A stretch of DNA of 64,000 bases, taken from Gammaproteobacteria bacterium. Lineage in GTDB: Bacteria; Pseudomonadota; Gammaproteobacteria; SZUA-229. The notes under the pieces were generated by a model, which saw only the letters and a program-made list of their open reading frames with translations, searched no databases and was not told the origin of the DNA. The DNA lies in assembly GCA_026195255.1 (NCBI GenBank), contig JAPHSS010000020.1, positions 50,887 to 114,886 of the forward strand, written 5' to 3'. This document shows positions 2,494 to 44,546 of this stretch, piece by piece (position 1 is the stretch's first letter; every line of letters begins with the position of its first letter). A program made the translations under genes and the position numbers.

Positions 2494-3792
2494 ATGTTTG
2501 GTTTTTTACGCCGCACTAAAGAAACAACTGAAAACACTTCCGAGTCTGACAATGAGTCTTCAAACGAACTCATTGATAAACTCAGCGAACCTGTAAGCCA
2601 GCCTTCACAGGCAACTATAAAGTCCGGCGCATCATTTACACCGGGCGGACGGGCCGCTTCGGCCACGCCCCCGGCTGAAACAGCTCAGGCAGATACACAA
2701 GTTACAGATGCTATCGATGAGAACAAAGATGCCCCCTCATCAATAACTAACGCACCTTCAGCTGAGCCGACAATAGATACACCGCAAGCTGCAGAACCAA
2801 CAGCAGTTAAATCCGGGGCTTCCTTCAGCCCGCCGACAGCTGAAGAATGGGCAAAAGCAAAAGAAGAAAGCTCATTCACTTATCTAAAAGACAGTCTTGG
2901 AAAAACCCGTGCTGGTTTAACTGATGGTATGGCTGACCTGTTGCTGGGCAAAAAAACCATTGATGATGAATTACTCGAAGAACTGGAAACACGTTTGCTT
3001 TCCGCCGATGTCGGCATCGAGGCGACCTCACGCATCATCACCGACCTCACAAAACGTGTTTCACGTAATGAACTTAATGATCCAACTGCACTGTTTAATG
3101 CGCTTTGCGATGACATGGTTGAAATTTTACAACCCGTAAGCAAACCACTGCTAATCGAAAATAAAAAATCACCTTTCGTAATTTTAGTTATCGGCATAAA
3201 TGGTGCCGGAAAGACCACCACCATCGGCAAACTGGCTAAACGTTTTCAAAATCAGGGCAAATCCGTAATGCTTGCAGCGGGTGACACCTTCCGCGCAGCC
3301 GCGGTAGAGCAATTACAAACCTGGGGTGAGCGTAATGAAATTGCGGTTGTAGCCCAGGGCACGGGTGCAGATTCAGCTTCCGTTATTTATGATGCAATTG
3401 AATCGGCAAAATCAAAAAATATAGATGTGGTCATTGCTGACACGGCTGGACGTTTACATACTCAAAACAACTTAATGGATGAGTTAATAAAAATTAAAAG
3501 GGTAATGGGTAAACTTGACGACACAGCCCCCCATGAAACCTTACTGGTTATGGATGCGGGTTTTGGACAGAACGGTTTAATTCAGGCCCAACAATTTAAT
3601 GAAGCAATGAATGTAAGCGGATTAGTACTCACCAAACTCGATGGCACAGCTAAAGGTGGGATTTTATTTGCCATTGCCGAGAAACTGTCCATACCTATCC
3701 GTTTTATTGGTGTCGGCGAAGGCATTGAAGACTTACGTGAATTTCATGCAACTGAATTTGTTGACGCATTATTAGATAAAATACCTGATTAA
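2494..3792 (+). CDS. ftsY: Signal recognition particle receptor FtsY
   Basis: Acidic low-complexity N-domain followed by an SRP54-type GTPase with GINGAGKTTTIGKLA, DTAGR and TKLDGTAKGG motifs. It precedes ftsE-ftsX. Confidence 0.9.
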   Translation: MFGFLRRTKETTENTSESDNESSNELIDKLSEPVSQPSQATIKSGASFTPGGRAASATPPAETAQADTQVTDAIDENKDAPSSITNAPSAEPTIDTPQAAEPTAVKSGASFSPPTAEEWAKAKEESSFTYLKDSLGKTRAGLTDGMADLLLGKKTIDDELLEELETRLLSADVGIEATSRIITDLTKRVSRNELNDPTALFNALCDDMVEILQPVSKPLLIENKKSPFVILVIGINGAGKTTTIGKLAKRFQNQGKSVMLAAGDTFRAAAVEQLQTWGERNEIAVVAQGTGADSASVIYDAIESAKSKNIDVVIADTAGRLHTQNNLMDELIKIKRVMGKLDDTAPHETLLVMDAGFGQNGLIQAQQFNEAMNVSGLVLTKLDGTAKGGILFAIAEKLSIPIRFIGVGEGIEDLREFHATEFVDALLDKIPD

Positions 3793-3881
3793 TAACTGGT
3801 ATATAAAACATTCCTTAACAAATACGATTAATAATGAATAACATTCGTAACTAACTGTATATACTTACGATGTAATTTAAA

Positions 3882-30356: not shown

Positions 30357-31253
30357 TTATCTGCCTCTCGCCAGAACAGTTACGCCACTAATAACCAGAA
30401 CAATGCCAACTGCATGAAATAATGTAAAAGGCTCATTCAAAAACCATATCGCCAACACAATTGTTACCATGGGGCCTAATGTCCCGATAACTCCCGTTTG
30501 TGCCGGCCCAATTTTTGCTATTGACTCGGCTATCATAAAACTTGGAATAACCGTGCTGAAAACAGCTAGTAATAAAATCCATAACCAGGCTAACCAGCTC
30601 ACGGTTAATGCACTGTAATCTAAAAACAGCGCGTAATAAATTAATACAAATACACTGGAAACAATCATTGCAATACTTGTGAACCACAAACTGCCCACCT
30701 TATGAATCACTTTTTTACCCACTAATACATATATAGAAAAGCTAAGTGCCGCAAAAAAAACAAGTAACGTACCTAATACAACATTTTCACCTGATAAGGA
30801 CGACTCTTGATAAAACACAATCCACACACCGGCATAAGTTATAAGAAGTGCTGTAATAATATTTTTTGTTAACGGTGTTTTAAAAAATATTGCACCGAGT
30901 AAAGCGACTAAAATGGGATAACTGAAAAGCGTTAACCTTTCAAGCTGTGCTGATATGTACTCCAGACCCTTTAAATCTAACCATGAAGACAAGAAGTAAC
31001 CGATAAACCCTAGAAATATAATTTTACCTATATTTTCACCAAGGCACACTGGAAGAGAATCAGATCGTCGAATTAACCATATCAGTATTAATAGATATAT
31101 CGGCAAGGAAATAGCCATGCGTAACATCAATACACTATCTGCATTCAGGCCTTCCAGATAGGCTAGCTTTATGAATATCGATTTGAGAGAAAACAGGGCT
31201 GTTCCCAGAATAGCTAAAAGGAAGCCAGTGGCCCTGGGGGATAGTGATAACAT
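30357..31253 (-). CDS. EamA/DMT-family transporter with 10 TM helices
   Basis: Two EamA-like repeats with multiple hydrophobic helices over 298 aa. Confidence 0.65.
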   Translation of the reverse strand: MLSLSPRATGFLLAILGTALFSLKSIFIKLAYLEGLNADSVLMLRMAISLPIYLLILIWLIRRSDSLPVCLGENIGKIIFLGFIGYFLSSWLDLKGLEYISAQLERLTLFSYPILVALLGAIFFKTPLTKNIITALLITYAGVWIVFYQESSLSGENVVLGTLLVFFAALSFSIYVLVGKKVIHKVGSLWFTSIAMIVSSVFVLIYYALFLDYSALTVSWLAWLWILLLAVFSTVIPSFMIAESIAKIGPAQTGVIGTLGPMVTIVLAIWFLNEPFTLFHAVGIVLVISGVTVLARGR

Positions 31254-31398
31254 ATTTCAGTAATACTTCTATTATTATGCGATGTGCAGACAATCTACAT
31301 ATCAAATCTAAATTTATCAGGCTGAATATCTTACCCTTAACGAGACCTTCATATACCTTAAATTAGCCATTTCTTATTTTTTGCATTATAATCACACT

Positions 31399-31466
31399 CC
31401 GCACTGAGGAGCGCTGCAGCAGATCTCTCTGTCAGGCTTAGTGCATCTTTTTTAAACGGCGCTCAT
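31399..31466 (+). ncRNA. Probable S-adenosylhomocysteine (SAH) riboswitch in the metK leader
   Basis: GCACUGAGGAGCGCUGCAGC … GUCAGGCUUAGUGC … AACGGCGCUCA. A P1 helix (GCACU/AGUGC), the GAGGAGCGCUGC and CAGGCU cores, and a 3' ACGGCGCUC element that could pair with GAGCGC in a pseudoknot all match the SAH-element consensus as I recall it. A TATAAT -10 lies at 31386-31391. Confidence 0.55.
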
Positions 31467-31588
31467 TTATTAGTTTCTAGTTTGGCTAAAAATGAGCACG
31501 GATCTAAAATCGGCATAATCTGCCACTACAAGATTCACTCATATGGCTTTATTAGCGCTGCTAGTATTTGTATCGAGGAATTGTAAAC

Positions 31589-32749
31589 ATGTCAAAAAGT
31601 CACCTATTTACATCTGAATCCGTATCAGAAGGACATCCTGATAAGGTTGCTGATCAGATATCGGACGCTATCCTGGATGGTATTTTTCAACAGGATCCGA
31701 AAGCACGTGTAGCTTGTGAAACACTTATTAACACCGGTATGGTTGTTTTATCAGGCGAGATAACCACTGAAGCATGGGTCGATATGCAGCAAATTGTGCG
31801 CGATACTGTGCGAAATATTGGTTATACCAGCTCCGAAATGGGCTTTGATGCTGATTCCTGTGCAGTTATCACCTCTATCGACAAACAGTCTCCTGATATT
31901 GCTATGGGCGTTAATGAGGGAGAAGACCACGAGCAAGGTGCTGGTGATCAGGGTCTTATGTTTGGTTATGCCTGTAATGAAACAGACGTACTTATGCCTG
32001 CACCGATTACTTATGCGCATAAACTCGTTAGACGTCAGGCAGAAGTGCGTAAAAATGGCACATTAAACTGGTTACGCCCGGATGCTAAAAGTCAGGTTAC
32101 TTTCCGTTATGAAGATGGCGTTCCTGCAGGCATTGAGGCGGTTGTTTTATCAACACAACATTCTCCTGATATCAGCCTGAGCGCACTGCGTGAAGCCGTT
32201 ATGGATGAAATTATTAAGCCAGTATTGCCGGCTGAGCTAATCAGTAAAGACACTAAATATCATATCAACCCAACGGGTAACTTCGTTATTGGTGGCCCTG
32301 TTGGTGACTGTGGTTTAACTGGCCGTAAAATCATTGTTGATACTTACGGCGGTATGGCGCGTCACGGTGGTGGTGCCTTCTCTGGTAAAGACCCCTCAAA
32401 AGTCGATCGCTCTGCTGCTTATGCTGGTCGTTATGTTGCAAAGAATATTGTTGCCGCTGGTCTGGCTGACAAATGTGAAATTCAGGTTTCGTACGCAATC
32501 GGTGTTGCCGAGCCTACCTCTATTTCTATTGAAACATTCGGCACAGGCAAAATTGATGATAGCCGCATTGAAGAACTGGTACGCGAACATTTCAACCTCA
32601 AACCAAAAGGCCTTATTCAAATGCTTGATCTATTGCGCCCAATCTACGCAAATACAGCAGCTTATGGTCATTTTGGCAGAACTGAAGATAACTTTACCTG
32701 GGAACGTACAGATAAAGCAGCAGCACTAAAAGACGCAGCTGGTATTTAA
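31589..32749 (+). CDS. metK: S-adenosylmethionine synthetase MetK
   Basis: [30 protein letters not shown], plus the GAGDQG and GGGAFSGKD motifs. Start chosen at the ATG at 31589. Confidence 0.95.
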
Positions 32750-32839
32750 GTTTTTGTAGTCGCGAACTTTTCGCAAATTAATTACATAACATTCGAAACC
32801 AGTCGACTGGTTAACACAGAATTATTTAGGAATTATACA

Positions 32840-34246
32840 ATGAGTGAATTTACAGATTATAAAGTAGCAGATATGTCTCTGGCTGAATGGGGCCGTAAAG
32901 AGATTTCAATTGCAGAAATTGAAATGCCAGGCCTGATGGCGTTACGTGAAGAATATGCAGGCAAAAAACCATTAGATGGTTGCCGCATTATGGGCAGCAT
33001 TCACATGACAATACAGACGGCTGTGCTAATCGAAACCTTAGTTGATCTGGGTGCCAGTGTACGCTGGGTTTCTTGCAATATTTTCTCTACACAGGATCAT
33101 GCGGCGGCGGCTATCGCTGCGCAGGACATTCCTGTTTTTGCCTGGAAAGGTGAAACTATCGAGGAATACTGGTGGTGTACTGAACAGGCACTATTATGGC
33201 CAAACGGTGAATTACCAAACATGATTCTTGATGATGGTGGTGATGCTACTCTTTTAGTTCACAAAGGTGTTGAGTTTGAAAAAGCAGGCGCTATTCCAGC
33301 AACTAAAGATGATGACAATGAAGAATACAAAGCTATTCTTGATGTACTACGCCGTACCATTGAGCCTGGCTCAAGCACATGGCAAGATATTGCAGCTAGC
33401 GTTAAAGGTGTAACTGAAGAAACAACCACAGGTGTTCACCGTTTATATGAAATGGAGAAAAAAGGTGAGTTACTTTTCCCTGCTATGAACGTGAATGATT
33501 CAGCAACAAAATCTAAATTCGATAATTTATACGGTTGCCGTGAATCACTAATCGACAGTATTAAACGTGCAACTGATGTAATGATTGCCGGTAAGATTTG
33601 TGTTGTTCTAGGATATGGCGATGTTGGCAAGGGTTGCGCTCAGGCTTTCAAAGGCATGGGAGCAACTGTGTGGGTTACAGAGATTGATCCTATATGTGCT
33701 TTACAGGCGGCAATGGAAGGTCACCGTGTTGTAGACATGAATGAAATTGTAGGCCAGGGCGATATCTTTGTTACGACTACTGGTAATGTAAATGTTATAG
33801 ACCATCACCATATGGAAGCAATGAAAAATGAAGCTATCGTATGTAATATTGGTCACTTCGATTCTGAAATTAATATTGCATCACTTGAAAAATACGAGTG
33901 GGAAGAAATCAAACCACAGGTTGATCACGTAATATTCCCGGACGGCAAAAAGATCATCATTCTTGCGAAGGGCCGTTTAGTTAATTTAGGTTGCGCAACT
34001 GGTCACCCAAGCTTTGTTATGTCAGCCTCATTTACTAATCAGGTAATGGCTCAAATTGAGTTCTTTACCAATGCACAGGCATACGAAAATAAGGTTTATA
34101 TTTTGCCTAAGAAACTTGATGAGAAGGTAGCACGTCTGCATTTAACTAAAATCGGTGCACATCTAACTCAACTTAGTGAAACTCAGGCCGAGTACATTAA
34201 TGTGCCTATCGATGGCCCATATAAAGCTGACCATTACCGCTACTAG
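32840..34246 (+). CDS. ahcY: Adenosylhomocysteinase AhcY
   Basis: A 468-aa protein with the NAD-binding motif [10 protein letters not shown] and the [18 protein letters not shown]-terminus. Confidence 0.95.
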
Positions 34247-34350: not shown

Positions 34351-35202
34351 ATGAAAACACAACAAAAACTAGACAAGCAATTTAGCTGTGAATTTTTTCC
34401 TCCTAAAACAGATATAGGAATGGAAAATCTTTTCAATACGGCTGAAACACTAAAAAAAGAAATTAATCCTGAATTTTTTTCTGTTACGTTTGGTGCCGGT
34501 GGCTCAACGCGTGAAACAACATTTAATGCGGTCACTAAAATACAAAAACAAACGGGTTGCAATGTAGCCCCTCATCTATCATGTATAGGTTCTAGCAAGC
34601 AACAGTTACAAAGCATTCTCGATGAATACAGGGCACAGGGAATAAAGCGGATTGTTGCCTTGCGCGGTGACATGCCTTCAGGCACCGTTTCACAAAGCGA
34701 CTTCAACCATGCCAATGAATTAGTTGCTTTTATTCGAGAAAATTTTGGTGATCAATTTCACCTTGAAGTAGCAGCATATCCTGAAGTTCATCCTCAAGCT
34801 GAAAACGCCATTCAAGATATGAAAAACTTCAAAACCAAAGTACTTGCTGGTGCAAATTCAGCTATAACTCAATATTTTTACAATATAGACAGTTATTTTT
34901 ACTTTATCGATAATTGTGAAAAATCGGGGCTCGACCTGCCCATTGTACCTGGCATAATGCCCATCACTAACTACAGCAACCTTGCGCGTTTTTCTGATAT
35001 GTGTGGTGCGGAAATACCTCGCTGGTTAAGACGAAAGCTTGAAGCTTACGCTGATGACACAGATTCAATTAAAGACTTTGGCGCTGATTTTGTTAGCTCA
35101 ATGAGCCAGAAACTATTAGACATGGGCGCGCCCGGCTTACACTTTTATTCCATGAATCAGAGCGAAGCAACACTACGCATATGGAATAACCTCAAATCTT
35201 AG
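34351..35202 (+). CDS. metF: 5,10-methylenetetrahydrofolate reductase MetF
   Basis: FEFFPPKT…FVSVTYGA-like start (SCEFFPPKTD…FFSVTFGAGGS), then APHLSCIG and IVALRGD motifs. Confidence 0.85.
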   Translation: MKTQQKLDKQFSCEFFPPKTDIGMENLFNTAETLKKEINPEFFSVTFGAGGSTRETTFNAVTKIQKQTGCNVAPHLSCIGSSKQQLQSILDEYRAQGIKRIVALRGDMPSGTVSQSDFNHANELVAFIRENFGDQFHLEVAAYPEVHPQAENAIQDMKNFKTKVLAGANSAITQYFYNIDSYFYFIDNCEKSGLDLPIVPGIMPITNYSNLARFSDMCGAEIPRWLRRKLEAYADDTDSIKDFGADFVSSMSQKLLDMGAPGLHFYSMNQSEATLRIWNNLKS

Positions 35203-35225: not shown

Positions 35226-35951
35226 ATGAAATCAGTCAGAATTTACCAGCCCGGACAATTCGAAGCGGGCAAATCTTTTCATCTAGACAAAACTTCTAGC
35301 AATCACCTTATAAAAGTTCTTCGCTTAAAAAACAATTATATTTTTAATTTATTTAATGGTGAAGGAGACGAGTACTCAGCTAAACTCGAGATTTCAGGAA
35401 AGAGCGCAATTGCTCATATAGACACTAGACTTACATCTGATAACGAATCCAGCCTTAAAATACATCTCCTACAGGGAATTTCAAAAGGCGACCGCATGGA
35501 TTTTGCAATTCAAAAATCCATAGAGCTTGGTGTTACCACTATCACGCCTGTTATTACCGAACGAACAGTCGTTAACTTAAAAGATAACCGCGCAGAAAAA
35601 AAACAACAACACTGGCGTTCTGTAGCAATCAGCGCTTGCGAACAATCGGGCCGAAACAAACTTCCCACACTAAATCCAATATGTAATTTATCTGATGTTT
35701 TTATTAAGCAAACTAAAGATTTGAAAATTTTGTTAGACCCATTATCAACAAATAGCTTTCAATCATTATCGCCCTCTAAAAACATACAGATTTTAATTGG
35801 TCCAGAAGGTGGATTATCAGACAGTGAAATCACTGTCGCCAATGAAAACGGATTCGAAGGCATTAAACTCGGACCTAGAATACTACGAACCGAAACCGCT
35901 GCTCTAGCTGCGATCACTTCAGCTCAACTACTGTGGGGAGACCTGACTTAG
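35226..35951 (+). CDS. rsmE: 16S rRNA (uracil1498-N3)-methyltransferase RsmE
   Basis: PUA-like N-domain, then the SPOUT C-domain with ILIGPEGGLSDSE. Confidence 0.8.
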   Translation: MKSVRIYQPGQFEAGKSFHLDKTSSNHLIKVLRLKNNYIFNLFNGEGDEYSAKLEISGKSAIAHIDTRLTSDNESSLKIHLLQGISKGDRMDFAIQKSIELGVTTITPVITERTVVNLKDNRAEKKQQHWRSVAISACEQSGRNKLPTLNPICNLSDVFIKQTKDLKILLDPLSTNSFQSLSPSKNIQILIGPEGGLSDSEITVANENGFEGIKLGPRILRTETAALAAITSAQLLWGDLT

Positions 35952-35994: not shown

Positions 35995-36447
35995 TTACAT
36001 CATTACCTGTTTTACAATTGATTCAAGTTTTTCAATATTAACAATACTATAAGTACCATCAGCCATCATCACTTTGTCTTCAATGGCAGGGTGTGTTATT
36101 TCTTCTTTATTTGAAATAATATCTTCTTCTTTAACATTAACTACTGTCGGTGCATCCTGCATTAAAATTGACATGAACGGTAAGTTACTATCTTCACCAA
36201 TAGAAAACAAAATAGCCGCTTTAACTGAACCAGTAGCAAGACTCGGCATGCGAACATTACCCATTGCTTCAAATGAAATAAGTGGAACTGAATGTCCACG
36301 CCAATCTAAATAACCTAACATCCAGCCAGGTTTATTTGCCACATTAATAATATTTTTAATAGGCACTATTTCAGCTACCGCTGCATTAGGCATTAACAGC
36401 TCATCACCATTAATCTTTAATATTACACATTTAATTTCTTCAGACAT
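35995..36447 (-). CDS. chpC: CheW-like coupling protein ChpC
   Basis: A 150-aa CheW domain immediately downstream of chpA, with a 1-bp overlap. Confidence 0.7.
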   Translation of the reverse strand: MSEEIKCVILKINGDELLMPNAAVAEIVPIKNIINVANKPGWMLGYLDWRGHSVPLISFEAMGNVRMPSLATGSVKAAILFSIGEDSNLPFMSILMQDAPTVVNVKEEDIISNKEEITHPAIEDKVMMADGTYSIVNIEKLESIVKQVMM

Positions 36448-39400
36448 CAGTCAAGTAACTCATGTATATTTTCAAGTAATTCATCTTCCTGGAATGGTTT
36501 ACCCATATATTTGTTTACACCAATTTCCATTGCTTTGTCTTTATGCTTGGCGCCACTACGAGATGTAATCATTATTATAGGCAAATCAACCAGTCGAGGA
36601 TCATTCCTTACGTGCGTAGCTACTTCGTAGCCGTCCATTCTCGGCATCTCAATATCTAACAACATCACATCAGGTTTAATCTCCTGCAACTGTGATACAG
36701 CATCCACACCATCTTTCGCGGTGACAACTTTCATATCATGCCTGGTTAACATACGCTCTGTAACTTTACGAATGGTAATAGAATCATCAACTACCATAAC
36801 GATAGTTTCTCGTTTTTCTTCTGCTACAGGTAATACTTCACCCGCTGGGCTTTCAGTTTCATCTTCAGATTCTGTAATGTGGAATAAAGAATCTCCGAGA
36901 ACCAGGGAGTTCATTTCGAGAATAATGACTACACGGCCATCACCCAATATTGTAGCTCCAGAAATACCACGTACTGTGCTTATTTGTGAGCCAACTGGTT
37001 TAACAACCACTTCACGTCGACCAATTAACTCATCGACATGCAAGGCAACACTCTGCTCGCCAGTTCTGGCTAACAATACAGGGAACAACTGACCTGAACG
37101 TGAATAGTCAGGCTGCTCGCCTGTCAACATCTGTCCTAAATGTTTTAACTCATACGAACTGCCGGCAAACTCATACGTACTCTCGCCACTGTTATAGAAT
37201 TGTTGCAATTCCGGACCAGACAGTCGAACAACACCTTCAATACTATTCAATGGCACTGCGTAAATTTCATCACCCACATTAACAAGTAGTGCATGATTAA
37301 TAGCAAGTGTAAGCGGTAAACGAATTTTGAATGTTGTGCCCTTACCTTGAACAGTATCTATTTCTAAAACACCGCCAAGTTGTTTTATCTCGCTGTCAAC
37401 AACATCCATTCCAACACCACGGCCGGAAATTTGAGTAACTTTTTCAGCTGTACTAAAACCAGCTTCCATAATATATTGCAATACGTCATGATCGCTGATC
37501 TTACTATTGGCATCTAACAGGCCTTTTTCAGTTGCTTTCTTTCGTATTGCATTAACATCTATGCCGCGCCCGTCATCTTTAACAATAATGACAACATCAG
37601 CGCCTTCACGATCAACGACTATTTTAAGCGTACCTGAATCTGGCTTACCTGCAGCCTGACGTTCAGCCACCTTTTCTATGCCATGCGATACCGCATTACG
37701 TAACATATGTTCAAGAGGTGCAACGATTCGGTCTAATACCGTTCGATCAACCTCAGACGTTTCACCAACAATTTCAAGCTCTACTTCTTTATCTAAATCT
37801 CGTGCAGTTTGGCGAACAATTCTTCGTAACCTTGACGCAAGCCCACCAAAGTGAACCATACGCGTACGCATCAAACCTTCCTGTAACTCAGTACTTACTC
37901 GAGATTCCTGTAACAGTAATGTTTCAGAGTCACGAACCTCTTCAGATAAAAGCTCTTTAATACTCTCTATATCACTTACAGTTTCCTGCAAGCTTCGTGA
38001 AATCTGTTGCATAGTTGAGAATCGGTCCATTTCTAATGGATCGAAATCTTCATCATACTGATCTGATTCCTTTTCATAACGTGAAAGAATCTGTGCTTCA
38101 GTCTCAATAGAAAGCTGGCGCAGCTGATCGCGCAAACGAATAACTGTTTGATTCATTTCTGAAAGGTTGAATGAAAAGTTTGATATCTGCTGGCCCATAC
38201 GTGCATGATATACACTAACTTCACCAGCATGATTTACCAGCTCATTTAATAGGTCAGATCGTACACGCACCTGTTCAGTGGCAATACTCTCTTTTTGCTG
38301 AGGGACTATTTTTTCGTGAGATTCATCTGATTTATCAAGAACCAGATCTGATGCGTCATTATTTTTAACGGATAGAGCTTCTACTGGCTCTTCTGAAGTA
38401 AGCTCATCTGTAGCCGGTTCATCTGAAGTTAACTCATCTGTAGTTGTCTCTAATTCTGCCTCTAGCTCGGCATCATCAATTACACTCACAGAAACATTAT
38501 CGACAGATTCAGCTGTTTCTTCGAGCAGTGATTCTGTACTTAATTCAACTTCATAAGTTGCATTTTCATCGAATACGAGCTCTTCTGTGTTAGCGGATTC
38601 GACATTATCTGCATCGTCGGGAATTTCAAAACCAAAGTCATCATCTGACTCTATGACAAGCTCTTCTGATAAAACATCTTCTTCTGACAGCTCAATTGAA
38701 AATGCTTCTGATTCATCAGTGTCTTCTTTTGTTATGCTTTTATCAGCCCCCCGGGGGGGCTCAGGCTCATCAACCTCTTCATTTAATGAAGCTGCCTGGC
38801 CATTATTTAAAGTTTTTTTTCCCTCTCTAATCGCATCAATATGCGAAATCAATGCAACAGCAGATGATAATGGTTTTCTATCTTTTACCTTAGATAACAT
38901 ATCAGACAACTTATCCAGAGCGTCATGGAATGCATTTGATATATCTTTACTGAATGGTAATTTTTTATCGTTTACAGCTATAACTAAAGATTCAAGAGCA
39001 TGTGTCAAGTCTCCTACAGGGCTTAGATCCGCCATCCTTGCACCACCCTTCAGTGTATGCAAATGACGCTGTAAATCTAAAACACTTTCTTCATCTTCAT
39101 TATTCGAATTCCAGCGCTGCAAACTATTTTCACAGTTATCTAGTAACTCTTCCGCCTCTTCCAGGAATATCTCTACTAACTCATCATCAACATCAGAGTA
39201 ACTAACTAACGACTCTTCACTATTTGTTTCATTACTAATTTCATTTACTGCGTCTATATCTTCAGTTTTTATTGATTGACTACGTTTCTCATCAACTAAC
39301 TCTTTGATGCGATTTAACAATGATGTATCGGATGACAGCTGATGATTTTTCTGTTCCAGCGCTTCCAGCATAGCAGAAACTTTATCAGTTACATCCCTAA

Positions 39401-42400
39401 TCAAACTAACGCCTGAGCTTGATATACTTAAGTCATTTCCATCAAGATACAAACGAACATATTTTTCAAGCTCGCCACATAATTCTGCAATCTCATCAAC
39501 TTCGGCAGTTCTGGCACTTCCAAATAATGTATGCAGCGCTCTTAAAAGTTCAGCATTGGCAGTTAACGGCTCAATTGACTGATTATGTAAATCAAGTAAA
39601 CTGTTTATTTTTTTCAGATGGTTTTCGGACTCACCCTTGAATATGTCAAATAATACAGGATCAATGTATATCTGTAACTTGTCTTCTGAAATCGGCTCAA
39701 TTTCTTCAGGTTCTGCTTCTTCTAACTGAATTTCATCTTCTAAAACGAGTTCATCAAAAGAAAAATCGTCTACTTCAACTACTTCTTCGTCAGATGAAGC
39801 AATCTGTAATGCTTCTAACTCTTCAGTTAAATCTATATCAAACTCATCATCAAAATCATTACCCGCTTCTTCTAATTCCAGGTTTGAATTTACTTCGGGA
39901 GCTTCTTCTATAACATCTTCTAAAACCAGCTCATCTTCCGAAATTTCATCCATCAATTCGTCTTCTGAAATTTCAATTACTGCAGACTCATCAACAGTCA
40001 GGGCGGGTTCGTCAGGCTGATTTTCTGACTGCCCTTCTTCTAGCGACTCTGCTTCAGTTGTTTCTATATTTAATTGATCAGCTTCTTCAACAGGGTTCTC
40101 TACTTTAGATTTTTTTATAGCCGAAGCAGGCTTATCAGCTGTCGGCTTTTCCCACTTTCCCAGCGCATCTGTCCTGTCAATTAGCTGGTATATATTGGGA
40201 ATAGGCTCTTTATTGCCTTTTAACTGCTCTATTAACTGAGGTAAGACACCTAATGACTCATGTAATATATCAAACACATCCTGTGTAAGAGGGCGTGATT
40301 TATCAATCACGCGATTAAGCATATTTTCAAAATTCCAGGAAAACTCACCTATAAGTTCCGCACCAATTAAACGCCCACTGCCCTTTAATGTATGAAATGA
40401 ACGACGAATAGTACTTAATGCTTCCTGGTTACCATGATCACGCTCCCAAAGAGGAATTTGCTCATTCAGTGAAGCGAGCTCTTCCATTGCTTCTTCAATA
40501 AAAATTTCTAATATTTCTTCATCTGCATCATCGCCAAGAATGATATAACGCTCTTCTTCTACTGCGGATTTACTTACAACCTCTGGCGCAGCTTCTTCAG
40601 TCTCTACGTCAGGCGGCGCTTCAGCTACAACATTCTGTTCAGGTTCTTCAGGCGATTTTTCCTGAGTGCTGTCTGGCTGAACATCGGCATCACTAACACC
40701 GCTTTCAGCTGCTATAGCTAATAACCTGTCTGCTGCCTCATTACCTGAGGTCATCGACAATTCAAGATCTGGACGACCTTCCAATACCGCCTCAAGATAA
40801 TACTCAATACTGGTAACGACATCCGCAAGATCATTTTGCACCGAGGCTTCTGGTATCTGCCCGGCATTTAACATAACTTTTGAAACATACTCACGAACAG
40901 AAACTGTCTGGTGTTTTAGTTTTTGAATAGGCAACATAAACATTGCACCATCAACTTCATCCAGGCGCTGAATGATTAAATCTAGCAAACTTTTATCAAC
41001 TGGATTTTCAAGATAACTCAGAATAGCCAGTCTTGCGTCATTGAAGTCCTGTAATGCCTCGCGTATTACCGCTGCCAGCACTTCCAGGTATTCGCCTTCA
41101 GGCATATCTGCCAAATCACCAACGCGACGTGCTGGCTCATCTTCACCCGTAGATCGATTAGCAATAAAGCTATTTAACTGAGACTCAACTGCAAGCAGAA
41201 CACCCGCCACATTCATGATAAGTTCATCAGTTGGTTCTTTAGATTTAGAAATCACCTGATTAATTACTTCTTGCTGCTCAATAACCTGCTCTCGAGGCAT
41301 ACCCAGCCCAAGCATTGATAAAGTATCAGCAATTTTTGCAAGTAAGGCCGGTAAGTTATTCAAACGGCCTAAATCCTGTGCCTCACTATGAACAAATATT
41401 TCCAGAGTATCTTTAACTTCTAGTAAATCTTCGCGTATGCCCGCTGAAACAGTTTCTAACAACTCGGAATTCAGGCCACCCATTCCAGAGCGAGCTTCTT
41501 CCAGCTCAGTATCACCAGGTAATAATTCTTCCAGACGGTAAGTGGTTTTTATTTTTTTAACACGGGGTGAATCAGTTGTAATTCGCGCGACATAATAAAG
41601 CAGGTTTTTTAATAAATCAGATGGCGCATTAGCGGCAAAACTTTCTTCATCTGTATCAATCAGTTGCTTTATGCTTCTATCAACCTGACCTAATAACATT
41701 TTGATACTGACGTTACTGTCTATGCCGTCTTTAGTCAGGCCTTCAATTAATGCAGAACTTATAGACCAGATGCGGCGTGTTGAAGGGTTAGCCGACTTTT
41801 TCTCCAACTCACCTAATACCGCAAGGATACGCTTTAAACTGGCAGCAATTTTCTGCCCTTTAAACCAGCCAACCAAACCAATTTGATAATGCGGACGTAG
41901 TTTTTTTGCAGTAGCCACCAGTTGACCTGATTCAATATCAGTCTCAGCTTGCTCTGCATCAGTTTCAACATCAGGGAAAAATAAAACATTTTCAGATAAT
42001 AAACTTGCGTTACGAGAAGCACGCAAATCGTTTAACAACGGTAGCAATACCATGGGCACATCTTTCCTGCCCGACTGCAAGCTTTCCAGATAATCAGGTA
42101 ATTGCAGCATTGATCGCATCAAGACATCATAGGCATCGTCAACTTTTTCGATTTTGCCATTAAGTAACGCTTCGGAAACTTTTTCCATCTCCTCAGCTAA
42201 TTGCGCAGCACCATATAACTCGACCATTTGCAAAGTGCCCTGCACCATATGCAAATGCTCTACCGATTCGCGCAAGCGATCAGTGTCTTCTGTGTCTTCT
42301 ATATAAGCTGACAGTGAAGCCTGAGCTTCCTGTAATATCAGATCAAGTTCTTTTTTGACCCAACGCAGCGAATTATATTCAACAGTATCCTCTGTTTTCA

Positions 42401-42410
42401 TCTCTGACAA
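36447..42410 (-). CDS. chpA: ChpA: giant hybrid CheA-type histidine kinase with several Hpt domains, a kinase core, a CheW-like domain and a C-terminal receiver
   Basis: A 1987-aa protein with repeated HTLKG-type Hpt motifs (FHTLKGSGR, LHTLKGGARM and others), HATPase_c motifs (DDGRGID, GRGVGMDVV), and a C-terminal REC (MVVDDS…LLDIEMPRMDG…KP). It also has long acidic low-complexity linkers. Confidence 0.9.
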   Translation of the reverse strand: MSEMKTEDTVEYNSLRWVKKELDLILQEAQASLSAYIEDTEDTDRLRESVEHLHMVQGTLQMVELYGAAQLAEEMEKVSEALLNGKIEKVDDAYDVLMRSMLQLPDYLESLQSGRKDVPMVLLPLLNDLRASRNASLLSENVLFFPDVETDAEQAETDIESGQLVATAKKLRPHYQIGLVGWFKGQKIAASLKRILAVLGELEKKSANPSTRRIWSISSALIEGLTKDGIDSNVSIKMLLGQVDRSIKQLIDTDEESFAANAPSDLLKNLLYYVARITTDSPRVKKIKTTYRLEELLPGDTELEEARSGMGGLNSELLETVSAGIREDLLEVKDTLEIFVHSEAQDLGRLNNLPALLAKIADTLSMLGLGMPREQVIEQQEVINQVISKSKEPTDELIMNVAGVLLAVESQLNSFIANRSTGEDEPARRVGDLADMPEGEYLEVLAAVIREALQDFNDARLAILSYLENPVDKSLLDLIIQRLDEVDGAMFMLPIQKLKHQTVSVREYVSKVMLNAGQIPEASVQNDLADVVTSIEYYLEAVLEGRPDLELSMTSGNEAADRLLAIAAESGVSDADVQPDSTQEKSPEEPEQNVVAEAPPDVETEEAAPEVVSKSAVEEERYIILGDDADEEILEIFIEEAMEELASLNEQIPLWERDHGNQEALSTIRRSFHTLKGSGRLIGAELIGEFSWNFENMLNRVIDKSRPLTQDVFDILHESLGVLPQLIEQLKGNKEPIPNIYQLIDRTDALGKWEKPTADKPASAIKKSKVENPVEEADQLNIETTEAESLEEGQSENQPDEPALTVDESAVIEISEDELMDEISEDELVLEDVIEEAPEVNSNLELEEAGNDFDDEFDIDLTEELEALQIASSDEEVVEVDDFSFDELVLEDEIQLEEAEPEEIEPISEDKLQIYIDPVLFDIFKGESENHLKKINSLLDLHNQSIEPLTANAELLRALHTLFGSARTAEVDEIAELCGELEKYVRLYLDGNDLSISSSGVSLIRDVTDKVSAMLEALEQKNHQLSSDTSLLNRIKELVDEKRSQSIKTEDIDAVNEISNETNSEESLVSYSDVDDELVEIFLEEAEELLDNCENSLQRWNSNNEDEESVLDLQRHLHTLKGGARMADLSPVGDLTHALESLVIAVNDKKLPFSKDISNAFHDALDKLSDMLSKVKDRKPLSSAVALISHIDAIREGKKTLNNGQAASLNEEVDEPEPPRGADKSITKEDTDESEAFSIELSEEDVLSEELVIESDDDFGFEIPDDADNVESANTEELVFDENATYEVELSTESLLEETAESVDNVSVSVIDDAELEAELETTTDELTSDEPATDELTSEEPVEALSVKNNDASDLVLDKSDESHEKIVPQQKESIATEQVRVRSDLLNELVNHAGEVSVYHARMGQQISNFSFNLSEMNQTVIRLRDQLRQLSIETEAQILSRYEKESDQYDEDFDPLEMDRFSTMQQISRSLQETVSDIESIKELLSEEVRDSETLLLQESRVSTELQEGLMRTRMVHFGGLASRLRRIVRQTARDLDKEVELEIVGETSEVDRTVLDRIVAPLEHMLRNAVSHGIEKVAERQAAGKPDSGTLKIVVDREGADVVIIVKDDGRGIDVNAIRKKATEKGLLDANSKISDHDVLQYIMEAGFSTAEKVTQISGRGVGMDVVDSEIKQLGGVLEIDTVQGKGTTFKIRLPLTLAINHALLVNVGDEIYAVPLNSIEGVVRLSGPELQQFYNSGESTYEFAGSSYELKHLGQMLTGEQPDYSRSGQLFPVLLARTGEQSVALHVDELIGRREVVVKPVGSQISTVRGISGATILGDGRVVIILEMNSLVLGDSLFHITESEDETESPAGEVLPVAEEKRETIVMVVDDSITIRKVTERMLTRHDMKVVTAKDGVDAVSQLQEIKPDVMLLDIEMPRMDGYEVATHVRNDPRLVDLPIIMITSRSGAKHKDKAMEIGVNKYMGKPFQEDELLENIHELLD

Positions 42411-42419
42411 ACTCTAGCC

Positions 42420-44546
42420 TTAACCGTTTAATATTACTGTTTCTACCTGCTCATCGCTGTCTGGCAGCTTAAAGCCGGCAACTGACTTACGTAACTCGTT
42501 CGCCAGAACACTTAGATTACCGATAGAGGCGGATGTTTCTTCTGTACCTTCTGACGTTTGCAGGGTAATTTCCTGAATAACGTTCATGGTATTAGATACA
42601 TCCATCGCAACCGATGCCTGTTTATTTGCAGAGGTTGAAATGCCGGTAATCAATTCCGCCAGCTCATCCGATACATTTTCAATTTCGATCAATGCGTCAC
42701 CCGCATCCTCGGCCATTTTTGCACCGCTTACCACGTTGGTTGTGCTCGCTTCCATTGAGCTAACCGCTTCGTTGGTATCGGACTGGATGGTTTTAACCAG
42801 TGCTTCAATCTGTTTTGTCGCGTTACCGGATCTTTCCGCCAGTCGCTGTACTTCGTCCGCAACAACCGCGAAACCACGACCCGCCTCACCCGCGGTCGAT
42901 GCCTGTATCGCAGCATTCAATGCAAGAATATTCGTCTGATCTGCGATTTCAGTGATCAGCCCAACGATGTCTCCGATTTCCTGTGATGATTCACCCAGTC
43001 GTTTGATACGTTTTGATGTTTCCTGAATCTGCTCACGGATCGTATCCATGCCGGTAATGCTCTTACGTACTATTACCGCACCTTTCTGAGCTATTTCTAG
43101 TGATTTATGTGCTACATCCACCGAGCCTTCCGCGTCTTTGGATACCGCTTTCATCGAATCAGCCATATCTGTTATCGCTGCTGAAGCAGATGCGATTTCA
43201 CGTGCCTGGTGAGCCGAAGCATCGGTTAATCGCGTCGCAGTTGCCTGCGTTTTCTCTGCCGCCGAAGAGACTTCCACCGCGGTTGTATTGATGGTAGCAA
43301 CAAGCGACCTGAGTGCATCAATCGCATAGTTAACCGAATCTGCGATGGCCCCGGTAATTTCTTCTGTTACCGTAGCGTGTACCGTTAAATCACCTTCCGC
43401 GAGGTTTGCCATCTCATCCAGTAATCGCAAAATAGCTCGTTGATTTCGTCTGTTTTGTTCAAGTGCTGCATCCTCACGTTCACTGGAGTCGCGAACCATA
43501 AGAACACCCGCCAGGATAATAACGATTACCGCTAAACCACCAGCACCGATACCAACCCAACGAAAGATATCAAGAAACTTACCGTGCTCAACAATTTCTT
43601 TTTCCAGGCCTTCAGTTTCTTTCAGTAACTGTACACCTAGCCCCTCAATCTCACCGGCTGAGTTTTTAACATCAAATAAATCTGGTGATAATTCTAAAAT
43701 TGCTTCAACATGGTCTGATACTGAACTGAATAACATCGCAACTTCACGTAGTTTTATTCTTACCACTTCATCATTGACTTTTTGAATTCGTAAAGCTTTT
43801 GAGCCTTTTAACATCGCCTCTAATACAGCACCAAATCGTGCCGCATCTCTACCAAAACGGTCAGCAGCCGCCGCCGCACCATCACCGCCTGATAAAACAC
43901 GGTTCATGTTATTTTCTATACGCTGTGTAAGCATCAACTGCCGAGACGCCATAAATACCTGGTGAGGTGTGGCATCGCGTGCCACCAACAAATCCACAAC
44001 TTCTTCAGAGAAAGATAACAGCTGCGGTATGAATTCCTGAATAACCAGTACAAACTCACTAACTTCCGAGATAGCTAATTTACCATCAAGGATATTTCCA
44101 ATATTTGCTCGGTAGGTATTTCCGCTTGTTCCAGACTCATCACCGTACCACACCTCAGTTACAACCTGATATTGTGCGCGTGCCGATTTAGGAAGTGGAG
44201 GCAGCCCCGTAGAAGGATTACCGTTTTTAAAGATATTCAGGGTTTCATCATAACGGTCTCGAAACTGCTCTAACTGAGTAAATGCTGTTTCTCTACCGGT
44301 TGCTGACTCTAAGGATAAAGTAGCTAATCGCTGTGATAATAATTTTTGCTCTGATACTATTTCGATATATTGCTGTTGATAACCTTGCTCACGTGCCGCA
44401 AAAATTAAACTGATCGCCATAGCGATAACAGAAAGAAATAAGAGCACACCCAGAATCAAAATGGGTTTACTAATTTTACCAATAGCAAACGGGTTTCGTT
44501 TTGCTGCACTCATATTATTCTTATCTCCCATGCAATCAAAATGCAC
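42420..44546 (-). CDS. pilJ: PilJ: methyl-accepting chemotaxis protein of the Pil-Chp system
   Basis: N-terminal TM, a periplasmic domain, a second TM, a HAMP domain, and the MCP signalling domain (…[33 protein letters not shown]). Confidence 0.85.

Follow-up and report, generated by a model that had tools for sequence, protein, structure and literature searches.

The S-adenosylhomocysteine (SAH) riboswitch was described together with the genes ahcY, metH and metF (PMC1950547; Weinberg et al. 2007). For this class, a dissociation constant (Kd) of ~32 nM and a ~1000-fold selectivity for SAH over S-adenosylmethionine (SAM), as well as a crystal structure (PDB 3NPQ; Edwards et al. 2010), are given as cited in PMC7057144. 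The gene for SAM synthetase, metK, goes unmentioned for the class in a regulon survey of 255 genomes (PMC3766115), and a survey of ~200 proteobacterial genomes states that SAH riboswitches do not control this gene (PMC4239095; Leyn et al. 2014). The latter survey places metK in the core regulon of SahR, an SAH-responsive protein regulator, and reports rsmE (COG1385) as a member of such operons in Moraxellaceae (PMC4239095). Our full-text literature searches, which did not cover Wang et al. 2008 or Edwards et al. 2010, found no report of a riboswitch of the corresponding Rfam family, RF01057, ahead of metK. Here we analyzed a stretch of 64,000 nt (64 kb) from an uncultured gammaproteobacterium (GenBank assembly GCA_026195255.1, contig JAPHSS010000020.1), hereafter the window, in which an RF01057 aptamer lies in the leader of a metK-ahcY-metF-rsmE operon.

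The best explanation of this locus, to which we assign a probability of roughly 60%, is a functional SAH riboswitch, transcribed from a promoter whose predicted start lies at the base of its P1 helix, heading the metK-ahcY-metF-rsmE operon and acting as an ON switch through a relay of mutually exclusive helices. Placing the riboswitch ahead of metK instead of the usual ahcY, this uncultured group probably switches on its whole methyl-recycling operon on SAH build-up. Three features set the locus apart as a variant: the target gene metK, a clade-wide relocation with surviving two-copy intermediates, and an extended platform with a predicted relay.

An initial annotation of the window had recognized the conserved blocks of the SAH riboswitch in the metK leader. 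All of them are there (GAGGAGCGCUGC...CAGGCU...ACGGCGCUC, 31406-31464), and the pattern occurs only once in the window and in 0/100 dinucleotide-preserving shuffles. The proposed identity was borne out by the covariance model: RF01057 matches 31400-31471 (+) over the full model (positions 1-78) with 58.2 bits (E=3.9e-8), well over the gathering score of 37. No other Rfam family reaches its gathering score in the window, and when 31250-32900 was scanned permissively, this aptamer was the sole match above noise and RF01057 the sole riboswitch family to score; the models of the SAM/SAH (RF01727) and SAM-II (RF00521) riboswitches found no match in that region even at E up to 10. With R1, a covariance model that we built for the related loci, the window aptamer scored 73.2 bits, as high as any relative.

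Helices were mapped, and covariation was assessed, in a family alignment of 26 related aptamers (A3). The P1, P2 and pseudoknot (P4) pairings, on which the initial annotation had made the assignment depend, are all formed in the window and backed by covariation. Across the three helices, 95% of the cells hold standard pairs, and both sides have changed in 11 of the 18 pairs (6/7 in P1 and 2/4 in P2), a level of pairing and covariation equalled by 0/500 shuffles; shifting the helix partners by 1-3 columns lowered pairing to 33-47%. The P4 helix, an LL-type pseudoknot between the GAGCGCU strand of the internal loop and the 3' GGCGCUC tail, is intact in the window. It is paired in 99.5% of the cells of the alignment and carries compensatory changes in three pairs, and the column of the window pair A31410-U31463 has A-U, G-C and G-U variants. 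All 22 columns that are invariant among 22 copies located ahead of ahcY (Y-type) are identical in the window aptamer. The only departure at columns conserved in at least 90% of those copies is a C-to-U change at 31439, which turns a G-C pair of P1 into G-U. We regard it as nearly certain, from sequence and covariation, that 31400-31471 is a true aptamer of the SAH class. The aptamer itself appears to be an ordinary, high-scoring member of that class and would be expected to bind SAH.

The position of the aptamer was compared in the 80 best metK loci among GTDB species representatives and in the window (1.01 Mb), searched with Rfam, a fuzzy pattern and R1. The nearest relatives are uncultured Gammaproteobacteria whose MetK is 88-92% identical to that of the window. 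A total of 33 aptamers were found in the 81 loci: 29 lie between metK and ahcY, directly ahead of ahcY, and 4 lie ahead of metK, all of the latter in the window and its three nearest relatives (L001, L002 and L003). A metagenome scan, with a pattern anchored on the P1 and P2 sequence of the window's lineage, returned 26 further contigs. The aptamer is followed by metK in 22 of them, with ahcY, metF and rsmE after metK where the contig extends far enough, and the other 4 end just past the aptamer.

In a neighbour-joining tree of MetK, the genomes with a metK-leading aptamer (K) form a clade that is sister to the genomes with an ahcY copy only (Y). Two genomes, L002 (L002:2714-2796) and L103 (1775-1841, oriented), have a metK-leading and an ahcY-leading copy within one operon. 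L002 is the most basal branch of the K clade, and L103 groups with L082 in a more divergent lineage, likewise with the K arrangement. Beyond the two-copy genomes, the K clade, the window included, has lost the ahcY-proximal copy. The metK-ahcY spacer of the window holds no aptamer, with nothing above 5 bits, and no intrinsic terminator; a search of the spacer and the rest of the operon for the remnant of a second aptamer gave nothing above 4.3 bits with filters off. Judged from these arrangements, the simplest reading would be an ancestral order metK-riboswitch-ahcY, followed by a duplication ahead of metK and by loss of the original in most descendants, including the window.

Three observations concern individual relatives. 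The Y copy of L002 has the same P1 5' strand and P2 sequence as the K copies and that of L103 resembles the Y type of the sister clade, a contrast that hints at gene conversion or at different histories. L082 (Ga0114931_10053440; aptamer 2529-2593, metK 2737-3873) combines a K-type aptamer and the leader hairpin described below (hairpin A) with a MetK only 58% identical to that of the window and closest to that of L103 (68%). Its DnaG is 63% identical, inside the range of other clade members, its metK is apparently more GC-rich than its leader, and the contig stops 42 nt past metK; L082 seems to represent a divergent lineage with the same leader. Just upstream of metK in Marinomonas transparens (NZ_JAEMNX010000001, L012:5847-5922) there is a borderline match to SAM_alpha/SAM-II (RF00521; 36.4 bits against a gathering score of 36), as if relatives may place a SAM-sensing RNA where the window has an SAH-sensing one.

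The leader between aptamer and gene is long. The 3' end of the window aptamer lies 118 nt upstream of the metK ATG (31589), so the element does not fall within the 70 nt before metK, as had been annotated; the distance is 110-240 nt across the K clade, compared with a platform of 19-58 nt in the ahcY-position copies. The K leaders, of which 23 are distinct, have three elements in common: hairpin A (GCGCUCAUU...AAUGAGC(G)C), a downstream pyrimidine-rich CUCAU-like element and a GAGGAA Shine-Dalgarno (SD) sequence. The CUCAU-like element occurs in the 23 leaders, and hairpin A is found in 23/23, with changes in its 3' arm that are mostly wobble-compatible. In the Y copies of the sister clade, the P4 3' strand continues as GCGCUCAUUUCUU, which is complementary to AGGAGAUGAGC in the ribosome-binding region of ahcY, 19-58 nt further downstream; in L002, this strand of the Y copy pairs with the very start codon of ahcY (AUGAGCG). 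The Y copies would form a two-strand arrangement in which SAH-stabilised P4 would free the ahcY ribosome-binding site. Hairpin A of the K type sequesters the P4 3' strand in full and resembles a Y-type hairpin that has lost its Shine-Dalgarno sequence.

The window leader also contains a direct repeat of CUCAU and UUAUUAG (31462-31474 and 31538-31556). Its strand 3 and the 5' arm of hairpin C (CUCAU...UUAUUAGC) echo strand 1 and the inner arm of hairpin A (CUCAUUUAUUAGU), and strand exchange is therefore possible; the SD-sequestering hairpin looks like a second copy of hairpin A. The AUG at 31492, within strand 2, is probably a relic of the ahcY start region, because the P4 strand of the L002 Y-type copy pairs with ahcY AUGAGCG. 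An 8-codon leader peptide (MSTDLKSA*, 31492-31518) starting at this AUG was rejected as a candidate, as it has no SD and neither its length nor its sequence is conserved. We also rejected the repeat AGCGCUGC at 31553-61 as a mimic of the P4 5' strand: it is simply loop sequence of hairpin C and has not been kept in close relatives, which have AGUACUGC or AGCGUUGC.

We propose that the leader would work as a translational ON switch by a four-strand relay. In the absence of SAH, the P4 3' strand (GCGCUC plus AUUU, strand 1) would be held in hairpin A by strand 2 (AAAUGAGC), and strand 3 (CUCAUAUGG), being free, would pair with strand 4, which contains the metK SD GAGGAA, and block initiation. 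With SAH bound, P4 would retain strand 1, the freed strand 2 would pair with strand 3, and the exposed Shine-Dalgarno sequence would allow metK to be translated. The downstream genes ahcY, metF and rsmE would come under SAH control through the same single switch, with polarity that depends on translation, or stabilisation of the mRNA, as the most plausible means. The overall logic would be that SAH build-up turns on the whole activated-methyl cycle, SAM resynthesis included.

The predicted folds show the two states. In the minimum free energy (MFE) fold of the window leader with the aptamer free (apo), hairpin A forms (31461-68 with 31490-97) and strand 3 (31538-46) pairs with UUGUAU-GAG (31568-77), engaging the parts 31568-73 and 31575-77 of strand 4 and covering the SD. 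With the aptamer locked (holo), strand 3 pairs with strand 2 instead (CUCAU 31538-42 with AUGAG 31492-96) and the SD is open; hairpin B is then enclosed by the 2:3 helix, and the 3' arm of hairpin C pairs with 31468-74. The MFE folds of most leaders have strand 3 or its neighbourhood paired with the SD in the apo state and with strand 2 in the holo state.

The folding tests followed the equilibrium probability of an unpaired SD in the 23 distinct K-type leaders; the holo state was represented by making the whole aptamer, with its P4 3' strand, unavailable for pairing. In the holo state the mean probability rose from 0.22 to 0.52, and that of the window from 0.08 to 0.67. When the linker was dinucleotide-shuffled, the mean change was -0.01, and in 12/23 leaders 0/40 shuffles matched the observed change (Wilcoxon p ~1e-5). 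Blocking strand 2 as well in the holo state sequestered the SD again: the mean fell from 0.52 to 0.34 and the window value from 0.67 to 0.16 (p=5e-5). When the folded RNA was extended by 60 nt of coding sequence, the mean rose from 0.24 to 0.40 and the window value from 0.18 to 0.52; 13 leaders went up by more than 0.1 and 1 went down by more than 0.1 (p=6e-5). The window's subclade provides six alignable leaders, in which 94% of the cells are paired in the apo structure and 92% in the holo structure, and an A-to-G change in strand 2 is wobble-compatible with both partners. The earlier suggestion that metK, as the head of the operon, is SAH-responsive gains support from these predictions, in which the state of the aptamer governs the metK ribosome-binding site, and from the promoter-aptamer-leader-metK layout, kept in all 23 distinct leaders. 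We consider SAH-dependent activation of metK likely and slightly favour the relay as its mechanism; the SD opening that points to an ON switch is a model-dependent prediction.

A different route to the ribosome-binding site was discarded. The SD region of L002, UGCACCGAG, is perfectly complementary to the P1 3' strand, which could make that strand a direct anti-SD, but SD accessibility across the 23 leaders is the same with P1 and P2 free or locked.

Several points weigh against the proposed switch. The identity, position and conservation of the aptamer and the identities of the genes are shown by computation; the relay is a purely in silico construct, built on predicted equilibrium structures of RNAs ~200-260 nt long, and such predictions are noisy. 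With the coding sequence included, the mean effect is smaller and 10/23 leaders change by less than 0.1, and no SD opening is predicted in the leaders L082, L087, L090 and L096. The 23 leaders are kin, and the Wilcoxon tests overstate their independence. In the six-sequence subclade there are 2 compensated pairs in helix 2:3 and 0 in helix 3:4, too little variation for covariation statistics. The same apo/holo model applied to the ahcY-position riboswitches yields no consistent SD opening (0.33 to 0.35), so it may be blind to how such platforms really work; because it fails on the Y-type platforms, we make no quantitative claim on their mechanism. Finally, that ahcY, metF and rsmE are controlled from a translational switch at metK would be a further step, which we purely infer. 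The ahcY-proximal copy has been lost in most of the clade, and SAH control of these genes would therefore pass through the 5' switch; their control must come from this switch by polarity or mRNA stability, or from other elements. Polarity onto ahcY is a tentative proposal, with the odds leaning somewhat against it.

An SAH-responsive aptamer could also have a transcriptional output, through Rho-dependent termination or processing or decay of the leader, with the SD relay being incidental. The 118-nt leader, far longer than the 19-58 nt platforms of the ahcY-position copies, would suit this explanation, as would the weaker relay effect in the presence of coding sequence; loss of the ahcY-proximal copy in most of the clade implies that control of the whole operon would have to come from its 5' end, which a transcriptional mechanism would do directly. 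Yet 0/23 leaders, that of the window among them, have an intrinsic terminator, and the dependence of SD accessibility on the P4 strand exceeds that of shuffles and runs via strand 2. We find a transcriptional output unlikely as the sole explanation, and it is not exclusive of the relay since translational riboswitches can cause Rho polarity. More improbable still is that most metK expression comes from a second promoter, located within the leader downstream of the aptamer (TTGGCT-17-TAAAAT, 31482-31510), with little contribution of the riboswitch. This site is a 9/12 promoter-like match, and an essential gene such as metK might need SAH-independent basal expression, but it is 1 of 18 such matches in 5.6 kb, compared with 15.8 in shuffles. 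Its -10 is not conserved in close relatives (TTAACT, TAAACT, or absent), whereas the upstream promoter is kept in essentially all 23 leaders.

The remaining explanations question the relocated aptamer itself. It might sense SAM, or SAM and SAH, or act as an OFF switch, restoring the product-feedback logic that is normal for metK; this gene is usually under SAM-responsive OFF control by SAM-I, SAM-II, SAM/SAH or S(MK) riboswitches (PMC4239095, PMC2864571), and the Marinomonas relative has its borderline SAM-II match ahead of metK. Such a change is very improbable: with E allowed up to 10, the leader matches none of the SAM and SAM/SAH family models, and all invariant positions of the SAH class are unchanged. 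P4 and hairpin compete, moreover, in the same geometry as in the ON switches ahead of ahcY, and the folds predict that the SD opens rather than closes. Least credible of all is that the copy ahead of metK is a neutral or degenerating duplicate of the ahcY riboswitch that regulates nothing. The metK-proximal copy did arise in a lineage with a riboswitch already present 1.3 kb downstream, and two genomes keep both, but in most of the clade it is the ahcY-proximal copy that was lost and the metK copy that was retained. Every invariant aptamer position is kept, the score equals those of the best relatives, and promoter and hairpin A are conserved over MetK divergence down to 58-74% identity.

We therefore retain the SAH-responsive ON switch as the preferred reading of the metK leader. 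Its possible history can be put more fully: retargeting by duplication, with the intermediates extant, would have been accompanied by reuse of the old SD hairpin, stripped of its ribosome-binding site, as a decoy (hairpin A) in a lengthened relay acting on the metK ribosome-binding site ~120 nt away. Loss of the original copy would then have left metK under SAH feed-forward and the methyl cycle with one sensor. We put this complete scenario at a little under an even chance.

The coordinates of the leader elements and of the operon are collected in the table below.

Table. Features of the metK leader and operon in the 64 kb window. Helices P1, P2 and P4 were placed by mapping the sequence through alignment A3; apo denotes the aptamer left free and holo the aptamer locked.
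Feature	Position	Strand	Evidence or remark
Sigma-70-type promoter: -35 TAGCCA (31364-69), 17-nt spacer, -10 TATAAT (31387-92)	31364..31392	+	10/12 matches
SAH riboswitch aptamer (RF01057)	31400..31471	+	Covariance models, covariation, 22 invariant columns
P1, 7 bp	31401-07 with 31438-44	+	Sequence mapped through A3
P2, 4 bp	31420-23 with 31428-31	+	Sequence mapped through A3
P4 pseudoknot, 7 bp	31409-15 with 31458-64	+	Sequence mapped through A3
Hairpin A, P4 competitor	31459..31499	+	Predicted apo fold; in all 23 leaders
Hairpin A, strand 1 GCUCAUUU (overlaps P4 3' strand) with strand 2 AAAUGAGC	31461-68 with 31490-97	+	Apo fold
Hairpin A, inner stem	31470-75 with 31484-89	+	Apo fold
Hairpin B, constant spacer hairpin, GGAUCU/AGAUUC with inner GGCA/UGCC	31500..31536	+	Formed in apo and holo predictions
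Strand 3 CUCAUAUGG, putative anti-SD, repeats CUCAU of strand 1	31538..31546	+	Predicted folds
Hairpin C, UAUUAGC-GCU-GCUAGUA, enclosed by 3:4 helix in apo fold	31550..31566	+	Predicted folds
Strand 4, including SD GAGGAA (31575-80), 8 nt before ATG	31568..31580	+	Predicted folds
metK, methionine adenosyltransferase (SAM synthetase), 386 aa, first operon gene	31589..32749	+	NCBIfam TIGR01034, 627.8 bits (cut-off 309.4)
metK-ahcY spacer, 90 nt	32750..32839	+	Aptamer position in most relatives
ahcY, adenosylhomocysteinase, canonical SAH-riboswitch target	32840..34246	+	NCBIfam TIGR00936, 629.4 bits (cut-off 497.6)
metF, methylenetetrahydrofolate reductase	34351..35202	+	NCBIfam TIGR00676, 338.7 bits (cut-off 293.7)
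rsmE, SAM-dependent 16S rRNA (uracil1498-N3)-methyltransferase, last co-oriented gene	35226..35951	+	NCBIfam NF008692, 286.9 bits (cut-off 196)

The four operon genes were named by NCBIfam equivalog models, which agree with the metK, ahcY and metF of the initial annotation and add rsmE, a fourth gene that it had left out. The genes are separated by spacers of 90, 104 and 23 nt, no terminator-like sites were found between them, and the gene order recurs in relatives. The TATAAT noted earlier is present one nucleotide downstream of the position then given (31387-31392 rather than 31386-31391). Transcription is predicted to start at ~31399-31401, the base of P1, and both promoter hexamers and their spacing are kept in essentially all 23 leaders. 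The sequence ATTAGCCATTTC around the -35 hexamer (31362-31373) is conserved in most of the leaders beyond the need of a weak -35 TAGCCA, and could be a protein-binding site adding a second control layer. The metK-ahcY spacer contains a perfect palindromic hairpin, AACCAGUCGACUGGUU (32797-32812); it has no U-tract and so is not terminator-like, and could be a processing or stability element.

Upstream of the metK leader, the window has a divergent transporter of the EamA/DMT family (30357-31253, -) and dnaG. The transporter is an insertion confined to the window's subclade (the window, L084, L093/L104 and L101); elsewhere, in the K clade as well as in the Y-only sister clade, dnaG directly precedes the leader. 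The conserved synteny is dnaG-metK rather than the classical dnaG-rpoD. A functional tie of the riboswitch to the transporter was rejected, as the transporter is found only in the window's subclade and dnaG is the conserved neighbour. Downstream, a Pil-Chp-type chemosensory cluster (35995-44546, -) is convergent on the operon. It encodes a CheW-like protein, a 1987-aa ChpA-like hybrid kinase with three Hpt domains plus HATPase, CheW and receiver domains, and a methyl-accepting chemotaxis protein (MCP) of the PilJ type.

Few genes are riboswitch targets as often as metK, and almost all described examples have the product SAM switching it off. In the window, the sensor is one for the by-product SAH, probably switching metK on. 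Should SAH act as an ON signal, as it does for those members of the class that have been characterised, SAM synthetase, SAH hydrolase, the supply of methyl-tetrahydrofolate and an rRNA methyltransferase would rise together, which is the logic of the SahR regulon. SAM synthetase would then be under SAH feed-forward activation instead of the usual SAM feedback repression, with one sensor for the methyl cycle. The clade holds a natural series, with an ahcY copy only, both copies, or a metK copy only, that could illustrate how a riboswitch gains a new target. The same series would also show the lengthening of a platform by reuse of an old hairpin, and platform evolution is poorly documented. As SAH riboswitches serve as biosensors in methyltransferase assays, a long-range translational ON platform would be a new design.

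Compared with the SAH riboswitch class, the window has the same LL-type pseudoknot, the same P1, P2 and P4 helices and all conserved nucleotides, and its aptamer lies on the sense strand in the 5' leader of an operon with ahcY and metF, and with rsmE as in Moraxellaceae. It differs in that the first regulated gene would be metK, which is not a described target, and in its 118-nt platform with a predicted four-strand relay, whereas the ahcY copies pair the P4 strand directly with the ribosome-binding region. Logic and regulon would be those of SahR, for which SAH build-up derepresses ahcY, metF, metH and metK (PMC4239095). However, SahR is a protein repressor on an operator, and the sensor in the window is a cis-acting RNA aptamer. 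The SAM/SAH (RF01727) and SAM-II (RF00521) riboswitches are likewise cis RNAs in metK leaders that respond to an adenosyl-sulfur metabolite and act on translation via pseudoknots (PMC2864571, PMC7367207). Their folds are unrelated to that of the SAH class, and they are thought to turn metK OFF with SAM, the opposite logic.

Classical attenuator leaders with 1:2, 2:3 and 3:4 pairings have four consecutive strands that form mutually exclusive helices and pass a signal along the leader. The proposed relay would follow the same scheme, with a ligand-stabilised pseudoknot instead of ribosome stalling as its input and, as its predicted output, exposure of the Shine-Dalgarno sequence instead of a terminator.

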